A stretch of DNA of 64,000 bases from Myxococcaceae bacterium (GCA_017500825.1 JAFVYB010000114.1:5420-69419); one strand, 5' to 3'; counted from the first letter of the stretch, positions 8,097 through 64,000 are shown. Made by a program: numbers and translations. The notes: generated from the sequence alone by a model not told the origin.

Positions 8097-9533
8097 TCAG
8101 TCGAAGATGCTGTAGGCAACCTCGTCGCGCGCCTGCTTGTAACGCTGCTTCATGTCATCCAACAGGCGACGAATCCTCTCCGTGTCCGGATTGACGATGC
8201 GCGGCGTGACGAAGATCAAGAGCTCCTTCTTTGTCCCCTCGCTCGAACGGTTTTTGAAGAGCTCGCCCAAGATGGGGATATGGCCGAGCAACGGCGTCTT
8301 AGTGACACCCTTCTGCTCGTTGTGATGGAAGATGCCGCCCAGGACGATCGTCTCGCCATGGCGCACGGTGACAGTCGTGGAGACCTTGCGATTGATGGTG
8401 CCGGGCATGCCGTCCACGCTGACCGACATATCCATCTCGGAAGCTTCGGCCTTGATCTCCGTGCGGATATTGCCGTGACGATCGGCGGTCGGCGTCACTT
8501 CGAGGCTAATGCCATAGGGCTTGAACTCGACGGTGGCGGCATTAGCGGAAACGATCTGAACAGGGAATTCACCGCCCGAATTGAAGGTCGCCGTCTTACC
8601 GGAAGCGCAGACGAGCTTGGGCTGGGCCAGCATACGGCCATAGCCGTCGCTGAACTGGAACTGGAAGGCAAAGCCCGTCTCTGCGTCCCCAGAGAAGGAG
8701 ACATTGCCGTCCGCCGGATAGGAGCCAGGCAGGAACTGCTTGGAAATGGAGAGTGATCCGCTGAGCGAGCCGGTGATGTCGAGCGGCCAATTGATGCCAA
8801 TGACATCCGAATTGCTGCGACGGATTTCCACGAACTGGACTTCCGTGAGAATCATGCGCGCGATGCCGACGACCACGAGGTTTTCAACCTCTGACTCGCC
8901 GATGGCCTTGGTGATCTTCAGCGCCTTCTCCACATCCTCTTCGGATTCAGCCGAGCCTTCGAGGAAAATCTGAGTGCCGACGACTGTGGCCTGAACATTC
9001 TTGAGGCCTGCCCGCTGCAGCGCAGCATTCAGGTTGTTGGCGACAAGCTTTTTGGCGTTCGGAGCGTATTTCACGAAGCTCTGCACATTACCTGAATAAA
9101 TTTTGCAGATTTCATCCACGCGCTCGTAGTCGTCGGTCGTGTAGGCATAACCATCCAAATAGATGCGATCGCCAACCATGCGCACGGTAATGCCTTCGCG
9201 ATCGCCGAGGAGCCGTTTAATCTCCTCAATCAACTCATTGGGGTCTTTCTTGCGCACATTGACCATGAAGTTCAGGCGCGAACCATTCGACTTCCAAAGG
9301 AGCAGGGTCGTCCGGCCCTCGGTCTTGCCGACGATGAGGACCTGACTCGTTCCCAACACCTTGACGTCCGCGATCCCGGAATCACCGATGGCGATTCGGG
9401 CAATCCCCGGAACGTTGATAACCTTCTGCGTTCCCACACCAATCGCAACGGATTGCTCTTCCTGTGCGTAGGCTGTCCCTAACAACACAAAAACAAACGC
9501 AAAAATCATTGCGAAACGTATTTTGTTTGCCAT
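8097..9533 (-). CDS. cpaC: Tad-type outer-membrane secretin (CpaC/RcpA family)
   Basis: Signal peptide (MANKIRFAMIFAFVFVLLGTAYAQ). N-terminal pilus-formation domain (QKVINVPGIARIAIGDSGIADVKVLGTSQVLIVGKTEGRTTLLLW). C-terminal secretin signature (TPLLGHIPILGELFKNRSSEGTKKELLIFVTPRIV). Confidence 0.85.
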   Translation of the reverse strand: MANKIRFAMIFAFVFVLLGTAYAQEEQSVAIGVGTQKVINVPGIARIAIGDSGIADVKVLGTSQVLIVGKTEGRTTLLLWKSNGSRLNFMVNVRKKDPNELIEEIKRLLGDREGITVRMVGDRIYLDGYAYTTDDYERVDEICKIYSGNVQSFVKYAPNAKKLVANNLNAALQRAGLKNVQATVVGTQIFLEGSAESEEDVEKALKITKAIGESEVENLVVVGIARMILTEVQFVEIRRSNSDVIGINWPLDITGSLSGSLSISKQFLPGSYPADGNVSFSGDAETGFAFQFQFSDGYGRMLAQPKLVCASGKTATFNSGGEFPVQIVSANAATVEFKPYGISLEVTPTADRHGNIRTEIKAEASEMDMSVSVDGMPGTINRKVSTTVTVRHGETIVLGGIFHHNEQKGVTKTPLLGHIPILGELFKNRSSEGTKKELLIFVTPRIVNPDTERIRRLLDDMKQRYKQARDEVAYSIFD

Positions 9534-9636
9534 CGACTTTTCCTCTTCTGCATTGGATTTATCGGGTGAAACAACTCAAACCTGCCAACAACTCGACTTC
9601 AGACTTCTCCGGACTTCAAAAACATCGCCTGTGGCT

Positions 9637-10203
9637 TTAGAGCATCGACGCTGCGGCTGCCTGTTGATGCATCTGCCACCAAATCCCCCAGACGCTGCCC
9701 AACGCGATGGCAAAACCATAGGGAATTTTGGGAGTGCGATAGGTAATCTCCCGCGATGCCACGGGACGCATCTTCTGGACGGCTTTTTGTCCCATGCATT
9801 TAAAGGCATAAAAAAACTCACCACGCCAAAGAAGAACAACAATAGCGTGAACACCGCCGACAATCCCCGTCCCCACAAAACAAAAAATAATGGAGGGCAA
9901 ACCAACACCCGCGCCGACAGCGGCCATCAATTTGACATCGCCATCACCCATACCGCCCTTGCAGGCCATAAACCAAAAGACGAGGGCACCCACCACCATC
10001 CCCAAAAGACCGCTGAACAGCCCTACGTCGGAGAATGCCGTGCCCCAGCCGCCAAATATCAGACGAAGTAACAGACTAATGGCTATCGTCGGAAAGGTGA
10101 CGATATTTTTGATTTTTCTCGAATGAAAGTCCGTCACCACTGAAATAATCAGGGCGAGCGCCACAATTGAATACAAGATATTGATCAACTGTTGGGCGTT
10201 CAT
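9637..10203 (-). CDS. cpaA: Prepilin peptidase, A24 family (CpaA/TadV-like)
   Basis: ORF 9637..10266. Polytopic membrane protein carrying the two aspartate motifs (VVTDFHSRKIKN and GGMGDGDVKLMAAVG). Start placed at MNAQQLINILY (ATG complement at 10201-10203). The longer ORF would read through the C13 tract. Confidence 0.8.
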   Translation of the reverse strand: MNAQQLINILYSIVALALIISVVTDFHSRKIKNIVTFPTIAISLLLRLIFGGWGTAFSDVGLFSGLLGMVVGALVFWFMACKGGMGDGDVKLMAAVGAGVGLPSIIFCFVGTGIVGGVHAIVVLLWRGEFFYAFKCMGQKAVQKMRPVASREITYRTPKIPYGFAIALGSVWGIWWQMHQQAAAASML

Positions 10204-10230
10204 CTGTCGAGACTCTCGTTGGAAAAGGGA

Positions 10231-10243
10231 GGGGGGGGGGGGG
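10231..10243. repeat. G13 (C13 on the coding strand) homopolymer, 27 nt upstream of the likely cpaA start
   Basis: Read directly: ...ggaaaaggga GGGGGGGGGGGGG cagaggg... It lies in the 155-nt gap between the AMIN gene stop (10359) and the cpaA start (10203). Confidence 0.9.
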
Positions 10244-10358
10244 CAGAGGGCGGCGCTACAGAGCAAACTACAGAAGCTCTGTCAATATCGACTTACGCCT
10301 CTGCCAGAGCGTGTTTTTGAGAGGGAAAATCGCCCGGTAATGGCGAAAGGCACGCTTC

Positions 10359-11294
10359 TCAGCGTTCCACGTCGATCTGAAGTTCACGCGCGCGCTGTCT
10401 CACCTGGTAGCCGGCGGCTCTGTCGAGGTGCAGCTCCAACCGAACGTCGCCGTCGCGCTCGCCTGGCACCACCCGCTGGAGCGCTGTCCCAAAATAGCTC
10501 GTCTCCAGAGGATGACGGTTGTTGGCGCTGCCAAGCCGCGTCTTGTGGAGGGTGATGGTCACGACGCCAGGCGAGGTCTCACCCGCCGTATAGATGGCCT
10601 CCTGGGTGAGTCGGACAGTGACGCGGGCTGCCTCGGGCAAAAGCTTGAAACCGATGCGCTCGACAGTGGCGCGGGTGGGCGTCGGGTCTGATGGTGGCGC
10701 ATCGAGCGAACGCGGGCGCGCGGTTGTCGATGGAACACGCCGGGCCAGGCCTGTCTCGCCGCGAACAGAGGTCGCCTCTATCCTGTTCGGCATCCCCTCC
10801 CCTGCCCCCTCTCCTGCTGTCGCGGTCTTCGCCGCACGTTGCCGCGCCAGAGGATCGACCGACAACAAAGCGCCGCGCGATGACGGCCGGATGGCGATGT
10901 CCGCTCCCCTCACCTCCAGATCGACCTCGTGCTCAGCTTCGAACGAGATGGAGGCACGGACGATGGAGGTCTTTCCCGCTCCATGCGCCGTCAGCGTCAC
11001 CTGGCGCACCGGTCCTCTCTCAAAGCGCGTCTGGCGTTCCGCTGCCCCGATGACCGCGCCTTCGAAGTCCAGCAAGAGCCGCGGCGGGTTTTGCAACTCA
11101 ATGGTCGAGAAGTTGGGCGGCGCGCTCCCCTGGATGGTGATCGCGAAGCGTTGCGGCGACTCCTGAACGACCTCGACGCGCTCGATGTGGTTGAGGCGTG
11201 GCGCGCTCCAGGCTGTGGCGGCGAAAAAGGCCCAGATGGCGAGCGACAGACGCCAAATCGCGAACAGATGGCCGCGCCTCCCCTTTGTCCTCAC
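10359..11294 (-). CDS. Secreted protein with two AMIN-like domains
   Basis: Signal-like N-terminus (LFAIWRLSLAIWAFFAATAWSA). Two segments match the AMIN pattern: IERVEVVQESPQRFAITIQGSAPPNFSTIELQNPPRLLLDFEGA and VERIGFKLLPEAARVTVRLTQEAIYTAGETSPGVVTITLHKTRLG. High GC3. Confidence 0.65.
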   Translation of the reverse strand: MRTKGRRGHLFAIWRLSLAIWAFFAATAWSAPRLNHIERVEVVQESPQRFAITIQGSAPPNFSTIELQNPPRLLLDFEGAVIGAAERQTRFERGPVRQVTLTAHGAGKTSIVRASISFEAEHEVDLEVRGADIAIRPSSRGALLSVDPLARQRAAKTATAGEGAGEGMPNRIEATSVRGETGLARRVPSTTARPRSLDAPPSDPTPTRATVERIGFKLLPEAARVTVRLTQEAIYTAGETSPGVVTITLHKTRLGSANNRHPLETSYFGTALQRVVPGERDGDVRLELHLDRAAGYQVRQRARELQIDVER

Positions 11295-11478
11295 CGCTGA
11301 CTCCTCACCACGCGACAGCGCGCATCGCTGTCCTGATCCTTAAAAAATAAAATTCGGCGCAGGCGATTCACATCCCGGCACAGCCGCGCGCCACCAACTC
11401 GCCCCACAAAGCGATCCGAAACTGTTCGGGCCCTGCCCCGTGAGCGCGGGCGCCTCTTGCCCAGTGACGGCGCGACTT

Positions 11479-12885
11479 TCAAGCCATCCCACGCGGCCCA
11501 TGGCTCTCAAGCACAGCGCCGACGAGATAGAGCGAACCGGCGGCGAGCGCCCAGCCATCCGGCCCATCGAAAAGCGCCTCCCGCCTTGCCGCTTCGAGGG
11601 CCGCGCCGACCGTCTCATGACAGGTGAAGTCGACGCCCAGCTGGCGCGCGAGAGCAGCCAAATCACCGAGGCGCATGGCACGCGGGTTGTCGAGCGCCAC
11701 GAGGTGAACCGACGCGGCCTCGGCCAGGATCACCCGCGCCACAGACGCGACATCCTTGTCGGCCAGCGCGCTGAAGACGATCCGCGGCCTTGGTCCACGC
11801 GCTCGCGCCCGGCACATCGCGGCCAGGACACGCGCGCCATCCGGGTTGTGCGCGCCATCGACAATCGTCAGTGGACGCCTGTCGACGATCTGAAAGCGCC
11901 CGGGCCACTTCACCCGCTCAAGCCCATCCGCCACATGCCGCGCCTCGATCCTGGAGGAGAGTGAGAGGGCGGCGGCGATCGCCACTTCGGCGTTGTCCAG
12001 CTGGTGTTCGCCCGCGAGCGCGAGCTTGAGCGGTCCAATGCGCGGCGGCGCGGTCCGAGGCCCCTCAGAGCGCTGATTTTCGTCGCGCCCCGCCAGAATG
12101 CGCTGCTCAAAAAAGACCGGCGTCTCCCCATCCGACGCCCGCGCCCCGCCCACATCGCCGCGCGGCAAATTTTCCACCTGTCCAGGCGCCGTCTCAAGGA
12201 GCCCCCCCCCCTCCGGCGCCAACGCGAAGTCGCGGCCGGCAAAACTGCACGCGCACCTCTGTTCAGACGCTGTCCGCGCGATGACCTCAAGCGCCTCGGG
12301 CATCTGCCGCGCGATAAAGGCCCGCGTTCCCGGTCGCAGGATGGCCGCCTTCTCCGCCGCGATGGCCGCCAGCGTCGGCCCCAGTGTCGCCGTGTGATCG
12401 AGTCCGACGCGCGTGATGATCGCGACTTCCGGAACGACCGCGCTCGTCGCGTCGAGCCGCCCGCCAAGTCCGACCTCCAGCACGGCGATCTCCACCCCCC
12501 CGCGCGCGAAATGATCGATGGCCAGCGCTGTCAGCGCCTCGAAATATGTCGGCGTCTCACCGCTCTTCCGCATGGCCTCGCCAAGACGCGCCACGCCCGC
12601 GCTCAGTCCCGCCCGATCGATGTCAGCCCCGTCGACACGGATGCGCTCGCAAAGGTGGACGAGATGGGGCGAGGTGTAGAGGCCGACCCGGTGCCCGGCC
12701 GCCGAGAGAATCGCCGCCGCCGTGGCCGCCGCCGACCCCTTGCCGTTGGTGCCCGCGACCTGAAGCACGCGCAGCGCCGAGTGCGGATTGTCCAGCGCGC
12801 GCAACAGATGCCGCATCCGCGTCAGGCCCAGCGCCATCCCAAAAGGGTTGAGCGATTCGAAAAACGTTTCCGGCGAATTGTGCAT
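11479..12885 (-). CDS. folC: Bifunctional folylpolyglutamate synthase / dihydrofolate synthase
   Basis: Mur-ligase P-loop (VAGTNGKGS), then ...YTSPHLVHLCERIRVDG... and GLDHTATLG. Length of 468 aa fits. Confidence 0.9.
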   Translation of the reverse strand: MHNSPETFFESLNPFGMALGLTRMRHLLRALDNPHSALRVLQVAGTNGKGSAAATAAAILSAAGHRVGLYTSPHLVHLCERIRVDGADIDRAGLSAGVARLGEAMRKSGETPTYFEALTALAIDHFARGGVEIAVLEVGLGGRLDATSAVVPEVAIITRVGLDHTATLGPTLAAIAAEKAAILRPGTRAFIARQMPEALEVIARTASEQRCACSFAGRDFALAPEGGGLLETAPGQVENLPRGDVGGARASDGETPVFFEQRILAGRDENQRSEGPRTAPPRIGPLKLALAGEHQLDNAEVAIAAALSLSSRIEARHVADGLERVKWPGRFQIVDRRPLTIVDGAHNPDGARVLAAMCRARARGPRPRIVFSALADKDVASVARVILAEAASVHLVALDNPRAMRLGDLAALARQLGVDFTCHETVGAALEAARREALFDGPDGWALAAGSLYLVGAVLESHGPRGMA

Positions 12886-13175
12886 GGAACTCTCTCGCGC
12901 TGTTCACCCATATCCGACGCTCAAGACGCGCCTCGGGCCGACGGCGAACGGCGCGGCGCTCTAGCAAAAGCCCAGCCCACGGGAACGAGCCAAAACGCCG
13001 TTTTTTCGTCCTCATTATTAAGGATGGACGCGCGGCCAACGCCCTCCAGACCCCGAGCGCGCCGCAGGCGATCTCCGCCCCCTGGCCGGGTGTTGCGCCT
13101 CAAGAGGCATTGTTGCTAGGGAGGCCGCCCTTTTGCGCCGCCCAAGGCGCCGAGCCACCTTTCAAGGAACGCGAC

Positions 13176-13922
13176 ATGGTCCAAAAAACCCTCTTTTGCC
13201 CCAGCTGTTCGGAAATCCTCGATCCAAATAAAAACGAATGCCCGCGCTGCGGTGAATTTATTCAATTCGATCCCGATGAAATCATGATGCAGCTGGCGCT
13301 CAAGGCGCGGAAGAAATCCCTCATTCCCTGGGGGCTTATCTTCTTTTTCGCGATTTATTTCGCCAGCGCGTATTGCTTCGTCAAATACTATTATCGAACA
13401 ACCCCCGAATACAAAGCGGCCGTTCATTATTACAAAGGCGACATGATTCTCGGCGAAGACGATGGTAAATCGATCGACACCCCCATGCTTTTCGCCGCCA
13501 TGGAGGAATTTGTCCGCGGATCGCAGGAAACGCCCCTGGAGGATTACGGCTATCTGCGCATCGAGACGATTCAACGCCGCCTCAACGAGCGCAAAATCAA
13601 ACTCACGAGCGAGCAGCAGCGCGAAATCGACCATCTGGCGAGAATGCGGGCCGTGGCCAGAGAGAAGCGCAAGCCCGTGCTCCTCGTCGGCATTCGCGAC
13701 ACCTGGGACATCGACGCGCTGGAGGCCATGCCGCGCAAAATTTTTAATTACAGCGTCTTTATCGCCATGGGCCTGATGGCGGTTTGGATATTCCGCTCGT
13801 GGCGCATGCGGCGGCATTACGATCAAATGGCCACGCGCATGATTGAAGAGCGCCGCGTCGAGGCCATGGACGACGTGGAATACGCCAAATACAAAAAAGA
13901 GCAGCGGCGCAAACGGCGCTGA
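13176..13922 (+). CDS. Hypothetical zinc-ribbon membrane protein
   Basis: ORF 13110..13922. Start set at ATG 13176, preceded by AAGGAAC. CPSC...CPRC zinc ribbon at the N-terminus, two hydrophobic helices, basic C-terminus. Noticeably lower GC than its neighbours. Confidence 0.6.
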   Translation: MVQKTLFCPSCSEILDPNKNECPRCGEFIQFDPDEIMMQLALKARKKSLIPWGLIFFFAIYFASAYCFVKYYYRTTPEYKAAVHYYKGDMILGEDDGKSIDTPMLFAAMEEFVRGSQETPLEDYGYLRIETIQRRLNERKIKLTSEQQREIDHLARMRAVAREKRKPVLLVGIRDTWDIDALEAMPRKIFNYSVFIAMGLMAVWIFRSWRMRRHYDQMATRMIEERRVEAMDDVEYAKYKKEQRRKRR

Positions 13923-14062
13923 GTTCAAAGGCGACAAGCCAACAGAAAAATCGCCTCATCAAACACGCGCCAAACAAAATAATTTAAAATTTAAATCGGC
14001 GGGTAAAGCGTCCAATCGATAACTTTAAGAAGTTCAATCATTTCAACCGGCAAAATCCATGG

Positions 14063-14098
14063 GAGCGCGACATCCTTTGAAGATGCGCGCTCTTTTTT
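14063..14098 (+). terminator. Rho-independent terminator-like hairpin
   Basis: gagcgcgacat / atgcgcgctc stem (14063-14092) followed by T6 (14093-14098). It lies about 140 nt after the 13922 stop, in a convergent gap. Confidence 0.5.
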
Positions 14099-14115
14099 GA
14101 TCGTGAACGCGCGTT

Positions 14116-14364
14116 TCACAGGGCGCCGCGCGCGAAAAACGCGACCAGAGACAGGGCGATAAGTGCGATGATCGCGATGCCGACAACGCCGAGGCCCCGC
14201 TTGCCCGCGCCCTTCGAGGGCCTGGTGCCGGCGAGATCCTGAAAGCCGCCGCGCAGCGACGAGATCAGGCCCACCGAGTCGCCCGCCGACAGGTCGTCGC
14301 CCGAGGCTGACTGAAAGCGCTGTTCCGGGCGCTGTTTTTTGACGCGTTTTTTGGACTTGGGCAT
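14116..14364 (-). CDS. Small basic tail-anchored membrane protein (82 aa), hypothetical
   Basis: MPKSKKRVKKQRPEQ...GLGVVGIAIIALIALSLVAFFARGAL. A strong GAGGAG Shine-Dalgarno sits 6-7 nt upstream of the ATG (complement 14362-14364). The gene lies directly downstream of rarA. Confidence 0.5.
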   Translation of the reverse strand: MPKSKKRVKKQRPEQRFQSASGDDLSAGDSVGLISSLRGGFQDLAGTRPSKGAGKRGLGVVGIAIIALIALSLVAFFARGAL

Positions 14365-14465
14365 GTCGATTCTCCTCAATGGGCGGGAAATTCTTTTTGG
14401 GGCGAAATTTCCCGGATGAATAAAAAACAACGTCAACCAAAGCCGCGCGATGAATTGATTGGGCG

Positions 14466-15866
<1,401 letters not shown>

Positions 15867-15920
15867 GGCTCGCTCGTGGATGCGCGTCTTTCGCGGGGCG
15901 AACGACGGCGGACAAAGGTG

Positions 15921-16772
15921 TCAGCGCGTCTGGGAGGTCTCCGTCTGCAGGTAGACGTGCGCGCTCTCGTCGGCGGTCGGCAACAGGCCCATGCCGAGAT
16001 AGGTGAAGAGGATGAGCAAAAGACCTGTCGGCGGAAAGAAGGCGGCGGCGCGCGAATGGCGCCAGGCGGCGCGGCGCGAGAGACAGAGGTAGGCCGCGTA
16101 GAAGAGCCAGGTGGCCAGCGCCCAGTTTTCCTTGGGATCCCAGGTCCAGTAGTCGCCCCAGGCGCTCTTGGCCCACACCGAGCCGATGACGAGGGCGAAG
16201 CTCATCAGGACAAAGCCGAGGCGCAGTGTCTGGTCGGCCAGTGTCCAGAGGTCGCGCGAGGAGGGCGGCGGTCGGTGGCCAGCGCGCGTGCGCCACAGGT
16301 GGAGGATGGCGATGAGCGCGCTCAGGGCGAGGAAGGCGTAGCCAAAGAAGTAGAGGACGACGTGGGGGATGAACCAGACGCTGCGCAGCGCGGGCGGCAG
16401 GAGCGAAGGCGTCGCGTCAAATCGGGTCAGGGCGAAGGCGAGCGCGCTCAGGGCGGCGGCAGACATGCCCGTCGTCAGCGCCCGTGAGCGATAGAGGGCG
16501 GCGAAGGCGATCCCGAGCAGGCCCAGGCAGGCGCCGAGGAGGGTCATCGACTCGAAGAGCGAGCGGAAGGGCGGCTGGCCAAAGGCGATCCAGCGCTGGC
16601 CGATGGCGCCGAGGTTGACGAGGACAGCGGCGGCGAAGGTGGCGAACGATGCGCGGTCGAGGGCGCGGCGGCCGGTGACGAACGCGAGGCCAGAGGCGAC
16701 GAGCGACGCGAGATAGAGCAGGGCGCCGATGCCAAAGGGCGTCTGAAAGAGGTGGTGGACAAAGGAGGGCAT
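15921..16772 (-). CDS. Cytochrome c assembly protein (CcsA/CcmC-type haem-handling membrane protein)
   Basis: Polytopic protein with the tryptophan-rich motif (WAKSAWGDYWTWDPKENWALATW). Start set at MPSFVHH (ATG complement at 16770-16772). The longer ORF reads through a C9 tract. Confidence 0.75.
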   Translation of the reverse strand: MPSFVHHLFQTPFGIGALLYLASLVASGLAFVTGRRALDRASFATFAAAVLVNLGAIGQRWIAFGQPPFRSLFESMTLLGACLGLLGIAFAALYRSRALTTGMSAAALSALAFALTRFDATPSLLPPALRSVWFIPHVVLYFFGYAFLALSALIAILHLWRTRAGHRPPPSSRDLWTLADQTLRLGFVLMSFALVIGSVWAKSAWGDYWTWDPKENWALATWLFYAAYLCLSRRAAWRHSRAAAFFPPTGLLLILFTYLGMGLLPTADESAHVYLQTETSQTR

Positions 16773-52422: not shown

Positions 52423-55636
<3,214 letters not shown>

Positions 55637-59153: not shown

Positions 59154-59209
59154 GCAAGGAACGTTGGGAAATCAGACGGCATTCAACAATTTAAAGAAGG
59201 ACAATAAAA

Positions 59210-59936
59210 ATGTTCTACGAAAATATTTTAAACAAAAAACGAGGGGGGGGGTATCCTCAAGGTTATTCACGGCTATCCCCCAGAATATAACGCGGGTTCG
59301 GAAAATTATTCCAAAACGGTTTGCGACGAATTATCCAAGACAAACCGCGTCTCGGTCTTTACTCGCGAAGAAAATTTCTACGCCCCTGATTTTTCAATTC
59401 GGATTCGTCAGGACAATCCAAATCTGACGATTTATTATATCAATCATCCGCAGGGCAAGGACGGTTACCGCCACGCGCGGTTGGACGCGGTTTTTGCCGG
59501 GCTCGTGGATGAAATTCGCCCCGATGTCGCCTACATCGGGCACCTGAACCACCTCTCCACTGGCATTGTCGATGTATTGAGCGACAGAAAAATTCCCATT
59601 GTCTTTATGCTTCACGACTATTGGCTCATGTGTCCCCGGGGGCAATTCCTCATGCGGAGCATTGGGCGTGGGAATAATTTCATGCTCTGCCCGGGACAGA
59701 GTGATGAAAAATGCGCCCGTGACTGCTACGAGGTTTATTTTTCTGGCCGCGAAGACACAAGAACAGCGGATATGGCCACTTGGACGAATTGGATTCATCG
59801 CCGCATGGAGGAAACGCGAACAATGATTCAGAAGGTCAATCTGTTTATCGCTCCGTCCAATTATCTCCGGAAACGCTTTGTTCTGGATTTCAGGCGTTTT
59901 CCCGGGATAACGTCGAGTGATATATTGAACAAGTAA
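59210..59936 (+). pseudogene. Decayed GT4-family glycosyltransferase: N-terminal (GT4 N-domain) half only, frameshifted at a G9 tract
   Basis: ATG 59210 gives MFYENILNKKRGGG, then runs out of frame. The +1 frame from 59253 reads ILKVIHGYPPEYNAGSENYSKTVCDELSKTNRVSVFTREE...DVAYIGHLNHLS...IPIVFMLHDYWLMCPRGQF...LFIAPSNYLRKRF, which is typical of the N-terminal half of GT4 enzymes. It stops at 59934-59936 before any C-terminal Glycos_transf_1 domain. Confidence 0.7.
59243..59251 (+). repeat. G9 homopolymer at the frameshift point of the GT4 remnant
   Basis: ...aaaaaacga GGGGGGGGG tatcctcaagg... With G8 the ATG at 59210 would be in frame with the conserved ILKVIHGYPP block. Confidence 0.9.
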
Positions 59937-60008
59937 ACAATACAAAGCGCTACTCGCGGCTTACAAAGACGCGCGAGATCTGCAGTGCAGCAAAATGAGG
60001 AGTTGTGA

Positions 60009-62525
60009 ATGGATAAAAAACAAAAAATAGGCGTCATCATTGCGACGTCGATGGCAAGAAATGAAAGCCTTTTTTCATTATCATTAAATTCCGTTTTGAA
60101 CCAAACTGTAATGCCGGATTGCATCGTTATAGTTGACGACAACAATAATAGATCTACATCCGCAGAAATTGAAACCAGGATTAAACAAAATAATTTTAAA
60201 ATTTTACACTACACAAGAAACAAAAACACTAAGAATATGTCTGGAACCGGGGCATGGAATACAGGTATTGAATTTCTAAAGGATAAAATTGGCGAGGACG
60301 GTTATGCCGCATTTTTAGACGATGATGACAGTTGGGACCTGAATTACATTGAAAGCATTCGTCAACAAATACATGAAAATCCAAACACGGAAGCAGTATT
60401 TGCATTTTTGAAACGCTCAGATTGTCAGAATGTTTCAGAATTCAAGCTAACCGATCTGACGATTGAAAATTTTTTGATTGGAAATCCGGGCATTCAAGGC
60501 AGCAATATGTGTTTTAAGATTGGAAATCTGTTGAAAATAAATGGATTTGACGAACATCTCTCCAGCTGTTCCGACAGAGACTTAATGATAAGATTTTTAG
60601 AGGCTTTCGGAAATAAGGGCATCTTCATCATAGAAAAAAAATGTGTAAATCATTTTACGGGAAACGGAACAGTGACGTCTAATTTTGAAAAGAAGAAAAA
60701 TGGATTGGACTATTTTTTCAAAAAACACATCAAATCGTTTAATCTTCAAACACTTCAAAAATCACTGAGCCGCGCAAAAAAACTTTTCAACTATCCTCAT
60801 GATAAAAAGATTAACTCTCTCTTCAGAAAACAAACAACAGTTTTAATTACCGGCGTCTGCGGCTTTGTCGGTTCGCATGTCGCACGGGAGTTATCTAAAT
60901 GCGGATATTTTGTAATCGGAATTGACAATTTAGCGACGGGCTCCTTGGTGAATATTGAGGATTTTTCTCAAAACGATAATTTTCAATTTATCAATTTATC
61001 TATAAACAACGAGGGCGAGTTGAGAAGATTGTTCGAAGTCCATCCCATTGATTACGTGTTTCATCTTGCAGCCCTGCCTAGAATAAAATACTCTTTTGAT
61101 TATCCGAATGAATCTTACAATGCAAACGTTATTGGAACTAAAATCGTCGGAAAGATTGCCGCAGACTCTAATGTGAAATTATTTGTTTTTGCTTCATCTT
61201 CATCGGTTTACGGCGAGTGTGAAAATGTTAAAATGAGAGAAAGTGACGTTCTCCATCCGATGTCGCCATACGCAGAACAAAAGGCGAAAGCTGAAGAACT
61301 TCTGCAGGAAATTTTTAAGGCGTCCAACAGCTGTCTATTAATCCTTAGATTTTTTAATGTTTATGGGTTTTCATTTCAGCCGGTCGACCAATACTCGACA
61401 CTGATCGGAAAATGGGTTTCAGATATTAAAAATGGAAATTTAATAACGATCAATGGAACAGGAAATCAGTCGAGGGACTTCACATATATCGATGACGTCG
61501 TGACCGCCGCGCTCAATTGCCTAGAGGTTTATGATGCAAAAAAACAAATCAATATTATAAACATTGGAACAGGGATATCAACCAGAATAAATACAGTGGC
61601 TTCTTTTTTTGAGCAGATATTTGAGCAGAAAATTAAAAAGATAATTAAATCTCTGAATTATCAGGAGCCGCTATTTACCTGCGCCGACAATTCAAAGGCG
61701 AAGGAGCTTTTGAATTGGGCGCCTCAAGTGCCGTTAGAGGCTGGTTTAAGACTATATGTAAAAACTATAATCACTAAAGAACAACCCATTGCAATCGGCG
61801 TGGCGATGCACAACAACAGAAAAACAATTCGCAGATGTCTTGATTCTATCTTGCGCCAAAAAAAAGTAAACCGCCGTCTTAAAATCATTCTTGGAAACGA
61901 CAATTCATCTGATGACTGGCAAAAAGAAATCTCCGACTTCTTGTCAGACAAAAGGATCGATATTTTACCATTAAATAATAACAATATAGTTCAAACACGA
62001 AATGCGATAAATGAATTTATCGCACAAAAATATCCAGGTGCCGCTCTGATTGGACGTCTGGATGCTGATGATGAATATGCCGATGATTATGTATTGTCGA
62101 AAATTGAAGAGATCTTGGAATTACACGATCCAGACGTGATATTGGCAGGAAATTATTTGCGTCAGGACGGGGCGTTGCTTGAACGGAAAAATTTGGCATA
62201 TAAGCAATTTTCTGATCAAAATTATATTTTATTTCGATTGAAGCAGATGGCCAACAGTATTCCTGAAGGAGAGCTGCCGTCATGCAATTTGTTTGTGAAA
62301 CCCAATGTACTTCGACCCTATCCGGATGTAAAAAGCGGAGAAGATCATGAACTGGTGGCACATTATCTTATGAATCAGAGGAAATATCATATTTTTTTCG
62401 CGGAAGATATTTTGCTGACGATTTATGAGTTGGGAGGAAGCGTTACAGCTAAAAATAAACAGTCGGAGAATTACATCAGCTGCCGAAGAGAATTATATCA
62501 AAAAGCCTTGGAGGATTTGCTATGA
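60009..62525 (+). CDS. Tri-domain fusion: GT2 glycosyltransferase, NAD-dependent sugar epimerase/dehydratase (extended SDR), second GT2 glycosyltransferase
   Basis: 838 aa. The first GT2 spans aa 6-225 (IGVIIATSMARNESLFSLSLNSVLNQT, IVIVDDNNN, FLDDDDSWD). The SDR spans aa 277-587 (VLITGVCGFVGSHVA Rossmann GxxGxxG, ASSSSVYG, SPYAEQK YxxxK). The second GT2 spans aa 592-810 (IAIGVAMHNNRKTIRRCLDSILRQ, ILGNDNSSDD, RLDADDEY). GAGGAG Shine-Dalgarno 8 nt upstream. About 33% GC. Confidence 0.85.
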   Translation: MDKKQKIGVIIATSMARNESLFSLSLNSVLNQTVMPDCIVIVDDNNNRSTSAEIETRIKQNNFKILHYTRNKNTKNMSGTGAWNTGIEFLKDKIGEDGYAAFLDDDDSWDLNYIESIRQQIHENPNTEAVFAFLKRSDCQNVSEFKLTDLTIENFLIGNPGIQGSNMCFKIGNLLKINGFDEHLSSCSDRDLMIRFLEAFGNKGIFIIEKKCVNHFTGNGTVTSNFEKKKNGLDYFFKKHIKSFNLQTLQKSLSRAKKLFNYPHDKKINSLFRKQTTVLITGVCGFVGSHVARELSKCGYFVIGIDNLATGSLVNIEDFSQNDNFQFINLSINNEGELRRLFEVHPIDYVFHLAALPRIKYSFDYPNESYNANVIGTKIVGKIAADSNVKLFVFASSSSVYGECENVKMRESDVLHPMSPYAEQKAKAEELLQEIFKASNSCLLILRFFNVYGFSFQPVDQYSTLIGKWVSDIKNGNLITINGTGNQSRDFTYIDDVVTAALNCLEVYDAKKQINIINIGTGISTRINTVASFFEQIFEQKIKKIIKSLNYQEPLFTCADNSKAKELLNWAPQVPLEAGLRLYVKTIITKEQPIAIGVAMHNNRKTIRRCLDSILRQKKVNRRLKIILGNDNSSDDWQKEISDFLSDKRIDILPLNNNNIVQTRNAINEFIAQKYPGAALIGRLDADDEYADDYVLSKIEEILELHDPDVILAGNYLRQDGALLERKNLAYKQFSDQNYILFRLKQMANSIPEGELPSCNLFVKPNVLRPYPDVKSGEDHELVAHYLMNQRKYHIFFAEDILLTIYELGGSVTAKNKQSENYISCRRELYQKALEDLL

Positions 62526-64000
62526 ACAACGATGAAAGAAAGCAAAAGGCATTGGAAATCCTTACCGATATGGGATTAAAAAATCTAGAGTACTTGGGAC
62601 AGGGATGTGAAGGCATCGTTTTTCACGATGGTGTCTCTGTTTACAAAGTGCTCGTTCCATTTTATTTTGGGAAAAACAAAAACGAAACATTGCGACGTTT
62701 GTCCTACTTTCGAAATATTTCAGAGTGTCAAAACATATACAGACTTGAAGAAATTTGTGAACACAGCGGATTCATCATTGAAAAATATCCCTATGAACGA
62801 TCAATCCCCTGCGAAAGTATTACTGAGAGTGAAGCGATAGAATTTCTCACTGCGTGCTGGCAGGAAAAATTGATCGTTAAAGATTGTAAATTAAAGAACT
62901 TTGTTCGTGTAAACGGAAAGGTGAAGCTCGTAGATCTGGATGCCTGTGGATACAATGATAATTTGTTTCTTAATATGTGCATAAGATCGTTTTTGTATTC
63001 TATTTTTTATAATAAAATTAATTTCGAAGCATTTCAAAAACTTCAACGGAGCGCGATAAATAATTTCGATTTACCGGAACTCGAGGGAGCACGCGAATTT
63101 GTGAATAAAGTTTTTGCAAATATAATTTTTGAAGAATCAAAATCTGTTATACAAGGGTTTAAAATCCGCGAAGATGTCTATGACAACAACATATACCTTG
63201 CCGGAAATCTGCCGAATTTTGAAAATATTTTTTATGCTGGGATTAAGGAAAATAAATTTTTGAAAGATATAAAAATTTCAGATGTAATTATCAACGAGAA
63301 CTTATATTTTGAGCCACAAAAAGTCGTCGTTCACTTTGATGAATTAAAGCCGCTTAAAGAGAAAGTAACGCTTTTAATAAAAACATGTGCACAGGACGAA
63401 TTTACTGTTGAAGCCAATGTCAAACACATCGTCAGACAATTGTCTTCGCCCAATCCATTTTCTGAAATAGTGGTTTTAATTGATTCGAAAAAAAGTGACT
63501 TTCTCAGAGAATTTAATTCTCGCGGAACTTTGAATGGTATTATCGAACGAGTTCAGAAGCTTCAAGAAGCGGGGATCATTGATCGATTTGTTGTTTATGA
63601 TGATTCAAAGACAGAGGAAATAAATTTACGCTGGTTTAATTTGCCGTCGAAGTATGCGCACACGACCAAAAACATTCCTGTAAGTTCTCAGCTGTATGCA
63701 TTTGAGCAATGTTCTGGCGACTACATTTTACAAGCTGATTGCGATGTTCTGATTGGAAGAAAGGATTATAACCATTCTTTTTTAACGGATATGATTGCAC
63801 AGCTGAAACAGAATGAACGAGTTATATCAGTCGGGTTCAATATTTATAACAGGGAGTCAAAAGAATATTTCGGTTTTGACAATGGAAGTTTTGTCCCTGA
63901 AGTACGTCTAGGTTTATTTGACAAAAAACGCTTTTTCTCCTTGAAGCCCTTTCCAAACGAACTTGATTCAGACGGTAAATTAAAACTATCCTGGTACCGT
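62522..64000 (+). CDS. Fusion of a minimal protein-kinase-like (PKL) domain and a GT-A-type glycosyltransferase-like domain; 3' end runs off the window
   Basis: Not in the ORF track (no stop in the window). My translation of 493 codons contains no stop: MNNDERKQKALEILTDMGLKNLEYLGQGCEGIVFHDGVSVYKV...LIVKDCKLKNFVRVNGKVKLVDLDACG... (GxGxxG loop, VYK lysine, DxKxxN catalytic loop, DLD), then ...VTLLIKTCAQDEF...VVLIDSKKS...GDYILQADCDVLIG (GT-A DxD-like). Its start overlaps the upstream stop (ATGA at 62522-62525). Confidence 0.75.
   Translation, partial: MNNDERKQKALEILTDMGLKNLEYLGQGCEGIVFHDGVSVYKVLVPFYFGKNKNETLRRLSYFRNISECQNIYRLEEICEHSGFIIEKYPYERSIPCESITESEAIEFLTACWQEKLIVKDCKLKNFVRVNGKVKLVDLDACGYNDNLFLNMCIRSFLYSIFYNKINFEAFQKLQRSAINNFDLPELEGAREFVNKVFANIIFEESKSVIQGFKIREDVYDNNIYLAGNLPNFENIFYAGIKENKFLKDIKISDVIINENLYFEPQKVVVHFDELKPLKEKVTLLIKTCAQDEFTVEANVKHIVRQLSSPNPFSEIVVLIDSKKSDFLREFNSRGTLNGIIERVQKLQEAGIIDRFVVYDDSKTEEINLRWFNLPSKYAHTTKNIPVSSQLYAFEQCSGDYILQADCDVLIGRKDYNHSFLTDMIAQLKQNERVISVGFNIYNRESKEYFGFDNGSFVPEVRLGLFDKKRFFSLKPFPNELDSDGKLKLSWYR

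Follow-up and report, generated by a model that had tools for sequence, protein, structure and literature searches.

At the end of a 64,000-nucleotide stretch of DNA from a Myxococcaceae bacterium (GCA_017500825.1 JAFVYB010000114.1:5420-69419; hereafter the window), two overlapping genes lie one behind the other on the same strand. The second, an open reading frame (ORF) that starts at 62522 and is still open where the window ends, is, judged by its sequence, the N-terminal half of a predicted soluble, cytoplasmic enzyme with four modules: a protein-kinase-like (PKL) domain, a divergent GT-A glycosyltransferase domain, a GT2 glycosyltransferase domain and a radical-SAM domain. We propose that the two genes form a self-contained cassette that would assemble and tailor a glycan or glycoconjugate. 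An earlier note on this DNA had described the kinase-like and GT-A-like domains; both stand, but the picture was incomplete, as the GT2 and radical-SAM domains follow past the window end. The features of the two genes are as follows (residues are numbered from the start codon at 62522; aa, amino acids).

60009..62525, plus strand: partner gene of 838 aa, encoding a GT2 / UDP-sugar 4-epimerase-like short-chain dehydrogenase/reductase (SDR) / GT2 protein (Pfam, NCBIfam).
62510..62515, plus strand: Shine-Dalgarno sequence GGAGGA, 6 bases ahead of the ATG at 62522 (read directly).
62522..64000, plus strand: kinase-like/GT-A/GT2/radical-SAM gene, first 493 of 1066 codons (open frame; full gene on the near-identical contigs L001-L005).
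62522..63166, plus strand: atypical minimal PKL domain, aa 1-215 (profile against the Protein Data Bank (PDB), AlphaFold2, Foldseek).
62594..62614, plus strand: glycine-rich loop LGQGCEG, aa 25-31 (G26 and G28 in 82/82 covering sequences).
62645..62647, plus strand: Lys42, the VAIK-type nucleotide-binding lysine (K in 137/137 representatives).
62882..62899, plus strand: catalytic loop DCKLKN, with D121, K123 and N126 (N126 is N in 136/137).
62933..62935, plus strand: Asp138, metal-binding Asp in the DFG position (D in 137/137 representatives).
63179..63352, plus strand: small alpha/beta subdomain, aa 220-277, joining the PKL domain to the GT-A domain (AlphaFold2 secondary structure).
63353..64000, plus strand: divergent GT-A glycosyltransferase domain, first 216 of ~283 residues (borderline Pfam GT2 match; AlphaFold2 and Foldseek).
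63737..63745, plus strand: DxD motif D406-C407-D408 (QxDxDVxIGR invariant in 20 diverse homologues).

Translation of 62522-64000 yields 493 codons with zero stops, and the ATG (62522-62524) overlaps the TGA (62523-62525) of the upstream 838-aa ORF (60009-62525) in an ATGA arrangement, so that, with the GGAGGA sequence in front of it, the open and coupled reading frame described in the earlier note is upheld. Because the N-termini of homologues begin in the same way (MQDEIRKQKA, MKNNERKEKA), the start at 62522 is well placed. The motifs quoted in that note are likewise all present, namely LGQGCEG (aa 25-31), VYK (aa 40-42), DCKLKN (aa 121-126), VDLD (aa 137-140), LLIKTCAQDE (aa 284-293), VVLIDSKKS (aa 317-325) and QADCDVL (aa 404-410). 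The gene is 1066 aa long in five independent metagenome contigs (L001-L005), whose copies differ from the window copy by 3 residues within the common 493 aa, and the upstream 838-aa protein has an identical sequence on the same five contigs. An interruption just past the window, which the note had named as a sign of a pseudogene, is therefore not found. The ratio of nonsynonymous to synonymous substitution rates (dN/dS) between two alleles of the 1066-aa gene is 0.145, a value that indicates purifying selection on an intact gene. BLAST against 47 homologues divides the protein into four modules: aa 1-277, comprising the kinase-like domain and its subdomain; aa 278-560, the middle GT-A domain; and, past the window end, aa 565-810 and aa 827-1063, the GT2 and radical-SAM domains, respectively.

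The N-terminal module adopts a bilobal kinase fold in an AlphaFold2 model of aa 1-277 (predicted local distance difference test score, pLDDT, 91.2; predicted template-modelling score, pTM, 0.86). A Foldseek search with this model returned 992 PDB matches at E<=1e-3, and the 50 matches listed are all protein kinases, CaMKII and Aurora A included, with template-modelling scores of 0.37-0.50. Searched singly against Pfam, NCBIfam and the PDB, the 493-aa fragment gave a borderline GT2 match and noise, with no kinase family. A profile of the N-terminal region built from 23 sequences matched 488 PDB sequences at E<=10, the best 60 of them all protein kinases (TTK, S6K, CDK2 and Aurora among them; best E 2.3e-5). 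The alignment with these kinases is in register from the glycine loop through DFG, the profile's DiKpeNfiRv...lklID lying opposite DLKPANFLIV...LKLIDFG of TTK. The kinase-like fold suggested earlier from motifs is thus borne out, whereas its extent is not: the domain spans ~215 rather than ~165 aa, and what had been called a linker is a subdomain of ~55 residues, made up in the model of strands at 222-226, 245-253 and 267-274 and a helix at 233-242. Similarly, the DLD placed in the DFG position does contain a conserved metal ligand, its first Asp, D138, but D140 is not conserved.

With eukaryotic-type protein kinases (PF00069; CaMKII, Aurora A, TTK) the domain shares the bilobal fold, the glycine loop, the VAIK Lys, DxKxxN and the DFG-Asp. 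At only ~215 aa, however, it is without the H-R before the catalytic Asp, the alpha-C Glu, the activation loop and the APE motif, the last two being absent because only a few residues separate the strand at the DFG position from the next helix in the AlphaFold2 model. The absence of these last two elements argues against a protein kinase and is what one would expect if the substrate were a glycan or a small molecule. If the domain were a Hanks-type Ser/Thr protein kinase acting as a regulator of the enzyme itself or of other proteins, this would account for eukaryotic-type kinases being the best matches in sequence and structure, and for the weak Pkinase matches seen in 9 of 23 family members (best E 6.6e-4). 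Those scores are nevertheless all far under the Pkinase threshold (31.7 bits), peptide-binding elements of the C-lobe are missing along with the activation loop and APE, and the domain always occurs within or beside glycosyltransferase modules, so that we regard a regulatory protein kinase as extremely improbable. The likeness to Kdo/WaaP-type sugar kinases that had been suggested earlier fails as well. These lipopolysaccharide sugar kinases (PF06293) are also small kinase-like domains of bacteria, with sugars as substrates, but none of the 23 members matches PF06293 at E<=1, nor is there any match to the APH or RIO families among them.

As modelled, the middle domain has a divergent GT-A fold, and its DxD motif is invariant. 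The window fragment scores 23.3 bits against Pfam GT2 (PF00535), exactly the gathering cutoff; stand-alone homologues of the domain such as P0040 give no Pfam GT2 match, and a profile of the domain found nothing among PDB sequences. An AlphaFold2 model made on a 67%-identical homologue (pLDDT 91.6, pTM 0.91) gave 164 Foldseek matches at E<=1e-3, and the 50 matches listed are all GT-A glycosyltransferases, including SpsA, BcsA, K4CP, GalNAc-T2 and GpgS, in agreement with the GT-A-like domain of the earlier note. The domain superposes on the chondroitin polymerase K4CP, SpsA and BcsA and keeps their DxD, and several GT-A domains per polypeptide, as in the cassette, are also a feature of K4CP-like bifunctional polymerases. 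Unlike these enzymes, it has no significant sequence match to solved structures and carries many further invariant His, Arg, Trp and Tyr residues across the 20 homologues. The same domain occurs alone, as ~294-aa proteins, in Methanomicrobiales, and joined directly to radical SAM in others.

On the full-length protein, Pfam GT2 scores 51 bits at aa 570-724 and Radical_SAM (PF04055) 40.8 bits at aa 831-939, against a threshold of 29.5 bits. The radical-SAM domain has a CX3CX2C cluster motif whose three cysteines (C15, C19 and C22 in the domain alignment) never vary, a GGEP SAM motif and a C-terminal Cys-rich, SPASM/twitch-like stretch, all of which it shares with SPASM/twitch enzymes such as BtrN, MoaA, CteB and GDGT-MAS. 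In contrast to these enzymes, it aligns over the N-terminal half alone, NCBIfam scores are far under their cutoffs, and it is fused here to glycosyltransferases. Assignments of the domain as QueE, MoaA, viperin or BtrN were rejected, the matches being generic ones to the N-terminal half and far under the cutoffs. A known anti-phage defence system (PADLOC) was rejected too: the radical-SAM half gives a generic partial match to pVip (37.6 bits over 106/257 positions) and the other parts give nothing. Membership of a phage family was also rejected. Between the two alleles compared (L001 14974-15711 and L003), nearly all differences fall in the radical-SAM part, where dS is 0.32 versus ~0.01 in the rest of the gene, a contrast that suggests a recombination mosaic.

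The SDR of the upstream partner is nearest, among PDB entries, to UDP-hexose, UDP-HexNAc and UDP-hexuronate 4-epimerases (4zrm, WbpP, WbgU, 6zl6). In split systems a UGDH-like protein is found instead of the SDR, and on this sequence evidence both kinds of partner hint at uronic-acid chemistry. From one scan of species-representative genomes we collected 60 loci from more than ten phyla, belonging to Bacteroidota, Campylobacterota, Spirochaetota, Fibrobacterota, Verrucomicrobiota, Planctomycetota, Latescibacterota, Gemmatimonadota, Myxococcota, Gammaproteobacteria and several archaeal lineages. Outside a branch that carries a methyltransferase, all four modules are present in nearly all loci, fused or as adjacent genes, in four arrangements: a four-module fusion of ~1065-1100 aa; a further fusion to the upstream enzyme, of 1550-1940 aa; a split form with PKL-GT-A-GT2 and a separate radical-SAM gene; and, in methanogens, GT-A-radical SAM, GT2, a UGDH-like-GT2 fusion and a separate kinase-like gene. 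Single ORFs in a Bacteroidales and an Opitutales locus (L006 and L011) are colinear with the upstream 838 aa plus the ORF studied here, and these natural fusions confirm the functional coupling that the ATGA overlap, and with it the earlier note, had suggested. The co-occurrence with a GT2-SDR-GT2 enzyme that the note had proposed to check is found in close relatives (L007-L010, L012, L015); in most other loci the gene immediately upstream contains a GT2 domain, with the SDR separate or replaced. Apart from the cassette, the flanking genes of the loci are unrelated to each other. The cassette is horizontally mobile and has spread across bacterial and archaeal phyla. At E<=1e-3, 1.84 billion proteins yield ~457 representative clusters for the kinase-like family as a whole.

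For the activities, the acceptor and the order of steps we infer the following scheme. The upstream enzyme would epimerise a UDP-sugar and add sugars through its two GT-A sites, and the downstream enzyme would add further sugars through its two DxD-type GT-A sites. The PKL domain, with ATP-Mg, might then phosphorylate a sugar hydroxyl of the product, K42, N126 and D138 serving in binding and D121 and K123 in transfer, and finally the radical-SAM domain may carry out a radical tailoring of that product. ATP-dependent phosphorylation of the sugar product is the role that we tentatively favour for the PKL domain in the clade of the window protein, and we rate it as possible, a little short of probable. 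Chain termination, priming or phosphodiester linkage, put forward in the earlier note, would be putative roles of the enzyme.

We examined the catalytic residues in 87 sequences and in 137 family representatives clustered at 50% identity. G26, G28, K42, N126 and D138 are essentially invariant (G28 is present in 135/137). At the position of D121, on the other hand, Asn is found in 97, Asp in 29 and Ser in 6 of the 137 representatives, while position 123 has Lys in 63 and His in 51. The catalytic set described earlier thus holds among homologues for Lys42, Asn126 and Asp138 and gives way at Asp121. The window protein itself shows every element of the K / DxKxxN / D set, and its clade, the fused forms of Bacteroidales, Campylobacter, Treponema, Fibrobacter and Opitutales, keeps the canonical xDCKxxN loop. 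Since nearly all fused bacterial relatives retain the Asp, in an xDCKxxN or xD(I/V/L)KxxN loop, the pattern argues that the catalytic Asp is under selection in this clade. The residues for nucleotide and metal binding thus belong to the family at large, and the general base to that clade alone.

Several observations weigh against a phosphorylating role. Family-wide, the catalytic-loop Asp position is Asn in 71% and Asp in 21%; no conserved acidic residue occupies aa 50-63, where an alpha-C Glu would lie; the window protein gives no match to Pkinase; and no curated kinase family in Pfam or NCBIfam was matched at threshold. The family-wide loss of the catalytic Asp leaves room for two other roles. 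In the first, the domain would be a pseudokinase that binds nucleotide and metal without transferring phosphate and acts as an allosteric or scaffold module for the glycosyltransferase and radical-SAM domains. A family consensus without the catalytic Asp, a K123 position that is often His, the lack of a conserved alpha-C Glu and the invariance of the glycine loop and the three binding residues would all fit such a module; the canonical D-x-K-x-x-N loop of the window's clade, kept across many genera, and the invariance of both metal ligands, which goes beyond the need of a simple scaffold, speak against it, and we consider it rather unlikely. In the second, the domain would perform a non-canonical transfer, either of nucleotide monophosphate, as in SelO-type pseudokinases, or of phosphate onto an acidic acceptor (a carboxylate or phosphate), for which a general base would not be required. 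SelO-like enzymes are known for a similar pattern, in which the catalytic Asp varies but Lys, Asn and the DFG-Asp do not, and the partners (a UDP-hexuronate-type 4-epimerase or UGDH-like protein) point to uronic acids. We found no tie to SelO in sequence or fold, however, the nearest structures being ordinary protein kinases, and the window protein has the canonical Asp; such a transfer is accordingly very unlikely in our estimate.

Phosphorylation of a glycan also invites comparison with WbdD of Escherichia coli O9a, which terminates polymannose O-antigen chains by means of a kinase and a methyltransferase (PDB 4AZS, 4AZW, 4UW0). Common to both systems is the pairing of a soluble protein-kinase-like domain with multi-domain glycosyltransferases of the cytoplasm. 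One sister branch within the family (Latescibacterota-type; L046, L049, L056, L062) has the order GT2...PKL-class I SAM methyltransferase-GT-A-GT2, with the catalytic loop N-I-H-P-x-N and no radical-SAM gene within 20 kb at these loci. Among 145 representatives of the kinase-like family, 47 have a methyltransferase, 21 a radical-SAM domain and none both. In its pairing of PKL and methyltransferase, the sister branch resembles WbdD in domain content, so that the WbdD likeness suggested in the earlier note may hold indirectly, by analogy with that branch; the window protein itself has no methyltransferase domain. WbdD, for its part, has neither a glycosyltransferase nor a radical-SAM domain, most members of the present family are without the catalytic Asp, and no ABC transporter is linked to them. 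Two further differences count against the comparison, and with it against our reading: the order in WbdD, methyltransferase then kinase, is the reverse of that in the sister branch, and the WbdD profile match comes through the methyltransferase domain only (E 5e-6).

The destination of the product raises similar doubts. No transmembrane segment was predicted in any family member, and no exporter or flippase is conserved nearby or found among the commonest families of 139 flanking ORFs; Wzm/Wzt-type genes are absent from the 25 commonest Pfam families of these ORFs. A surface polysaccharide as the product is therefore putative.

In addition, genes for queuosine precursors lie in the operon at 13 of the 60 loci, which possibly indicates a different substrate class and is a further point against a glycan product. 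Eight loci, spread over three phyla, encode the queuosine-precursor transporter Vut_1 (PF02592; TIGR00697), either as the first gene of the operon or within it (L012, L015, L022, L035, L023, L030, L032, L033). Its TIGR00697 scores are 145-157 bits against a cutoff of 51, and its pairwise identities roughly follow those of the core enzyme. QueC (TIGR00364, 161-170 bits against a cutoff of 150) adjoins the core gene in five Bacteroidota loci (L014, L016, L025, L039, L042). Both proteins exceed their NCBIfam equivalog cutoffs. For the transporter family, import of Q precursors is the sole function to have been characterised (PMC11130926). In the actinomycete glycosylated preQ0 metabolites huimycin and dapiramicin, preQ0 is combined with a methyltransferase, a glycosyltransferase and sugar SDRs (bioRxiv 10.64898/2026.04.15.718813). 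Compared by enzyme type, these pathways have the same kinds of enzyme together with a preQ0 supply; they differ from the cassette in using a GT4 enzyme and in having no kinase-like or radical-SAM domain.

These neighbours suggest a reading in which the cassette would not make a polysaccharide at all, but would build a glycosylated 7-deazaguanine (preQ0- or queuine-derived) metabolite or modify a nucleic acid that contains 7-deazaguanine; the deazapurine would be tailored, as in huimycin and dapiramicin, by the glycosyltransferase domains together with the SDR and a SAM enzyme of either kind (radical SAM or methyltransferase). Vut_1 and QueC both supply preQ0, the transporter has pairwise identities that roughly follow those of the core enzyme in loci of three phyla, there is the precedent of the two metabolites, and proteins that are all cytoplasmic, with no linked exporter, would suit such a product. 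Conversely, the link is limited to 13 of the 60 loci; the cassette in the window has neither Vut_1 nor QueC; QueC identity does not track core identity, so that QueC may be a housekeeping neighbour; neither preQ1 nor other riboswitches were found in the Vut_1 and QueC loci; TGT, QueD, QueE and QueF are not among the commonest flank families; and four to five glycosyltransferase domains are many for a nucleoside glycoside. We regard a deazapurine product as distinctly unlikely, and the queuosine link as a lead rather than a conclusion. Of similarly low probability, in our view, is the wider idea of an undescribed cytoplasmic pathway of Bacteria and Archaea in which the PKL domain, mostly without its catalytic Asp, the new GT-A family and a SAM enzyme (radical SAM or methyltransferase) would act together on a 7-deazaguanine (preQ0- or queuine-derived) substrate. 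Such a pathway would yield either a deazapurine metabolite that carries sugar or, in nucleic acid, a glycosylated modification of the queuosine type, which prokaryotes are so far not known to have.

The cassette lies in a stretch of low guanine-plus-cytosine (GC) content:

59160..64000, no strand assigned: low-GC island with the cassette (GC profile), running ~2.3 kb beyond the window end.

GC content is 47-49% over the first ~800 nt of the island and 32-40% over the two genes, against 62-67% for the rest of the window and 62-70% for the flanks; the cassette, at 36% GC, sits in a gut bacterium of 66% GC. The LigA of this host shares a 90%-identity cluster with a protein from an NCBI metagenome-assembled genome labelled Myxococcaceae. 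L001, where the island occupies 9150-16264, and L002 have the cassette and the left flank (the gyrA side) in common and diverge ~550 nt after the stop codon, which marks the right border. No convincing pair of flanking repeats, tRNA or integrase was found at the island borders. At another locus, L032, a tRNA gene directly follows the fused core gene (10554-10638, minus strand). Adjacency to a tRNA is often seen at island integration sites.

The first gene of the island, at 59210-59936 and 47-49% GC, encodes the N-terminal Glyco_transf_4 half only of a GT-B enzyme (242 aa on L001), and may be a remnant that was truncated on arrival of the low-GC cassette. A homopolymeric G tract at 59241-59253, 30 nt into this gene, varies among near-identical contigs, reading GAG9 in the window, G13 in L001 and L002 and GAG5 in L003; the window copy is shifted by -2, splitting the gene into two ORFs. 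The cause is either slippage resembling phase variation or a mistake of assembly in the homopolymer. In the high-GC host part, between ligA and gyrA, a gene at 54800-55636 encodes a 278-aa PP-loop ATPase (PF01171, TilS/TtcA-like), which belongs to the same superfamily as QueC; it shows no link to the cassette.

Taken together, the four-module chain of PKL, GT-A, GT2 and radical SAM or methyltransferase is a new domain combination according to the literature searched, and the architecture was found neither there nor in the family models of Pfam and NCBIfam or the defence catalogue. The kinase-like and middle GT-A domains have no dedicated Pfam or NCBIfam model. The division of the family by catalytic residue, Asp in one branch and Asn in the other, correlates with architecture and offers a natural experiment in kinase-to-pseudokinase or neofunctionalised evolution. 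The cassette is compact (~6 kb), and the queuosine-precursor link gives a concrete substrate hypothesis. Moving as a compact unit among gut and rumen Bacteroidales, Campylobacter, Treponema, Fibrobacter, marine Gammaproteobacteria and methanogens, the cassette probably makes a product of ecological value.

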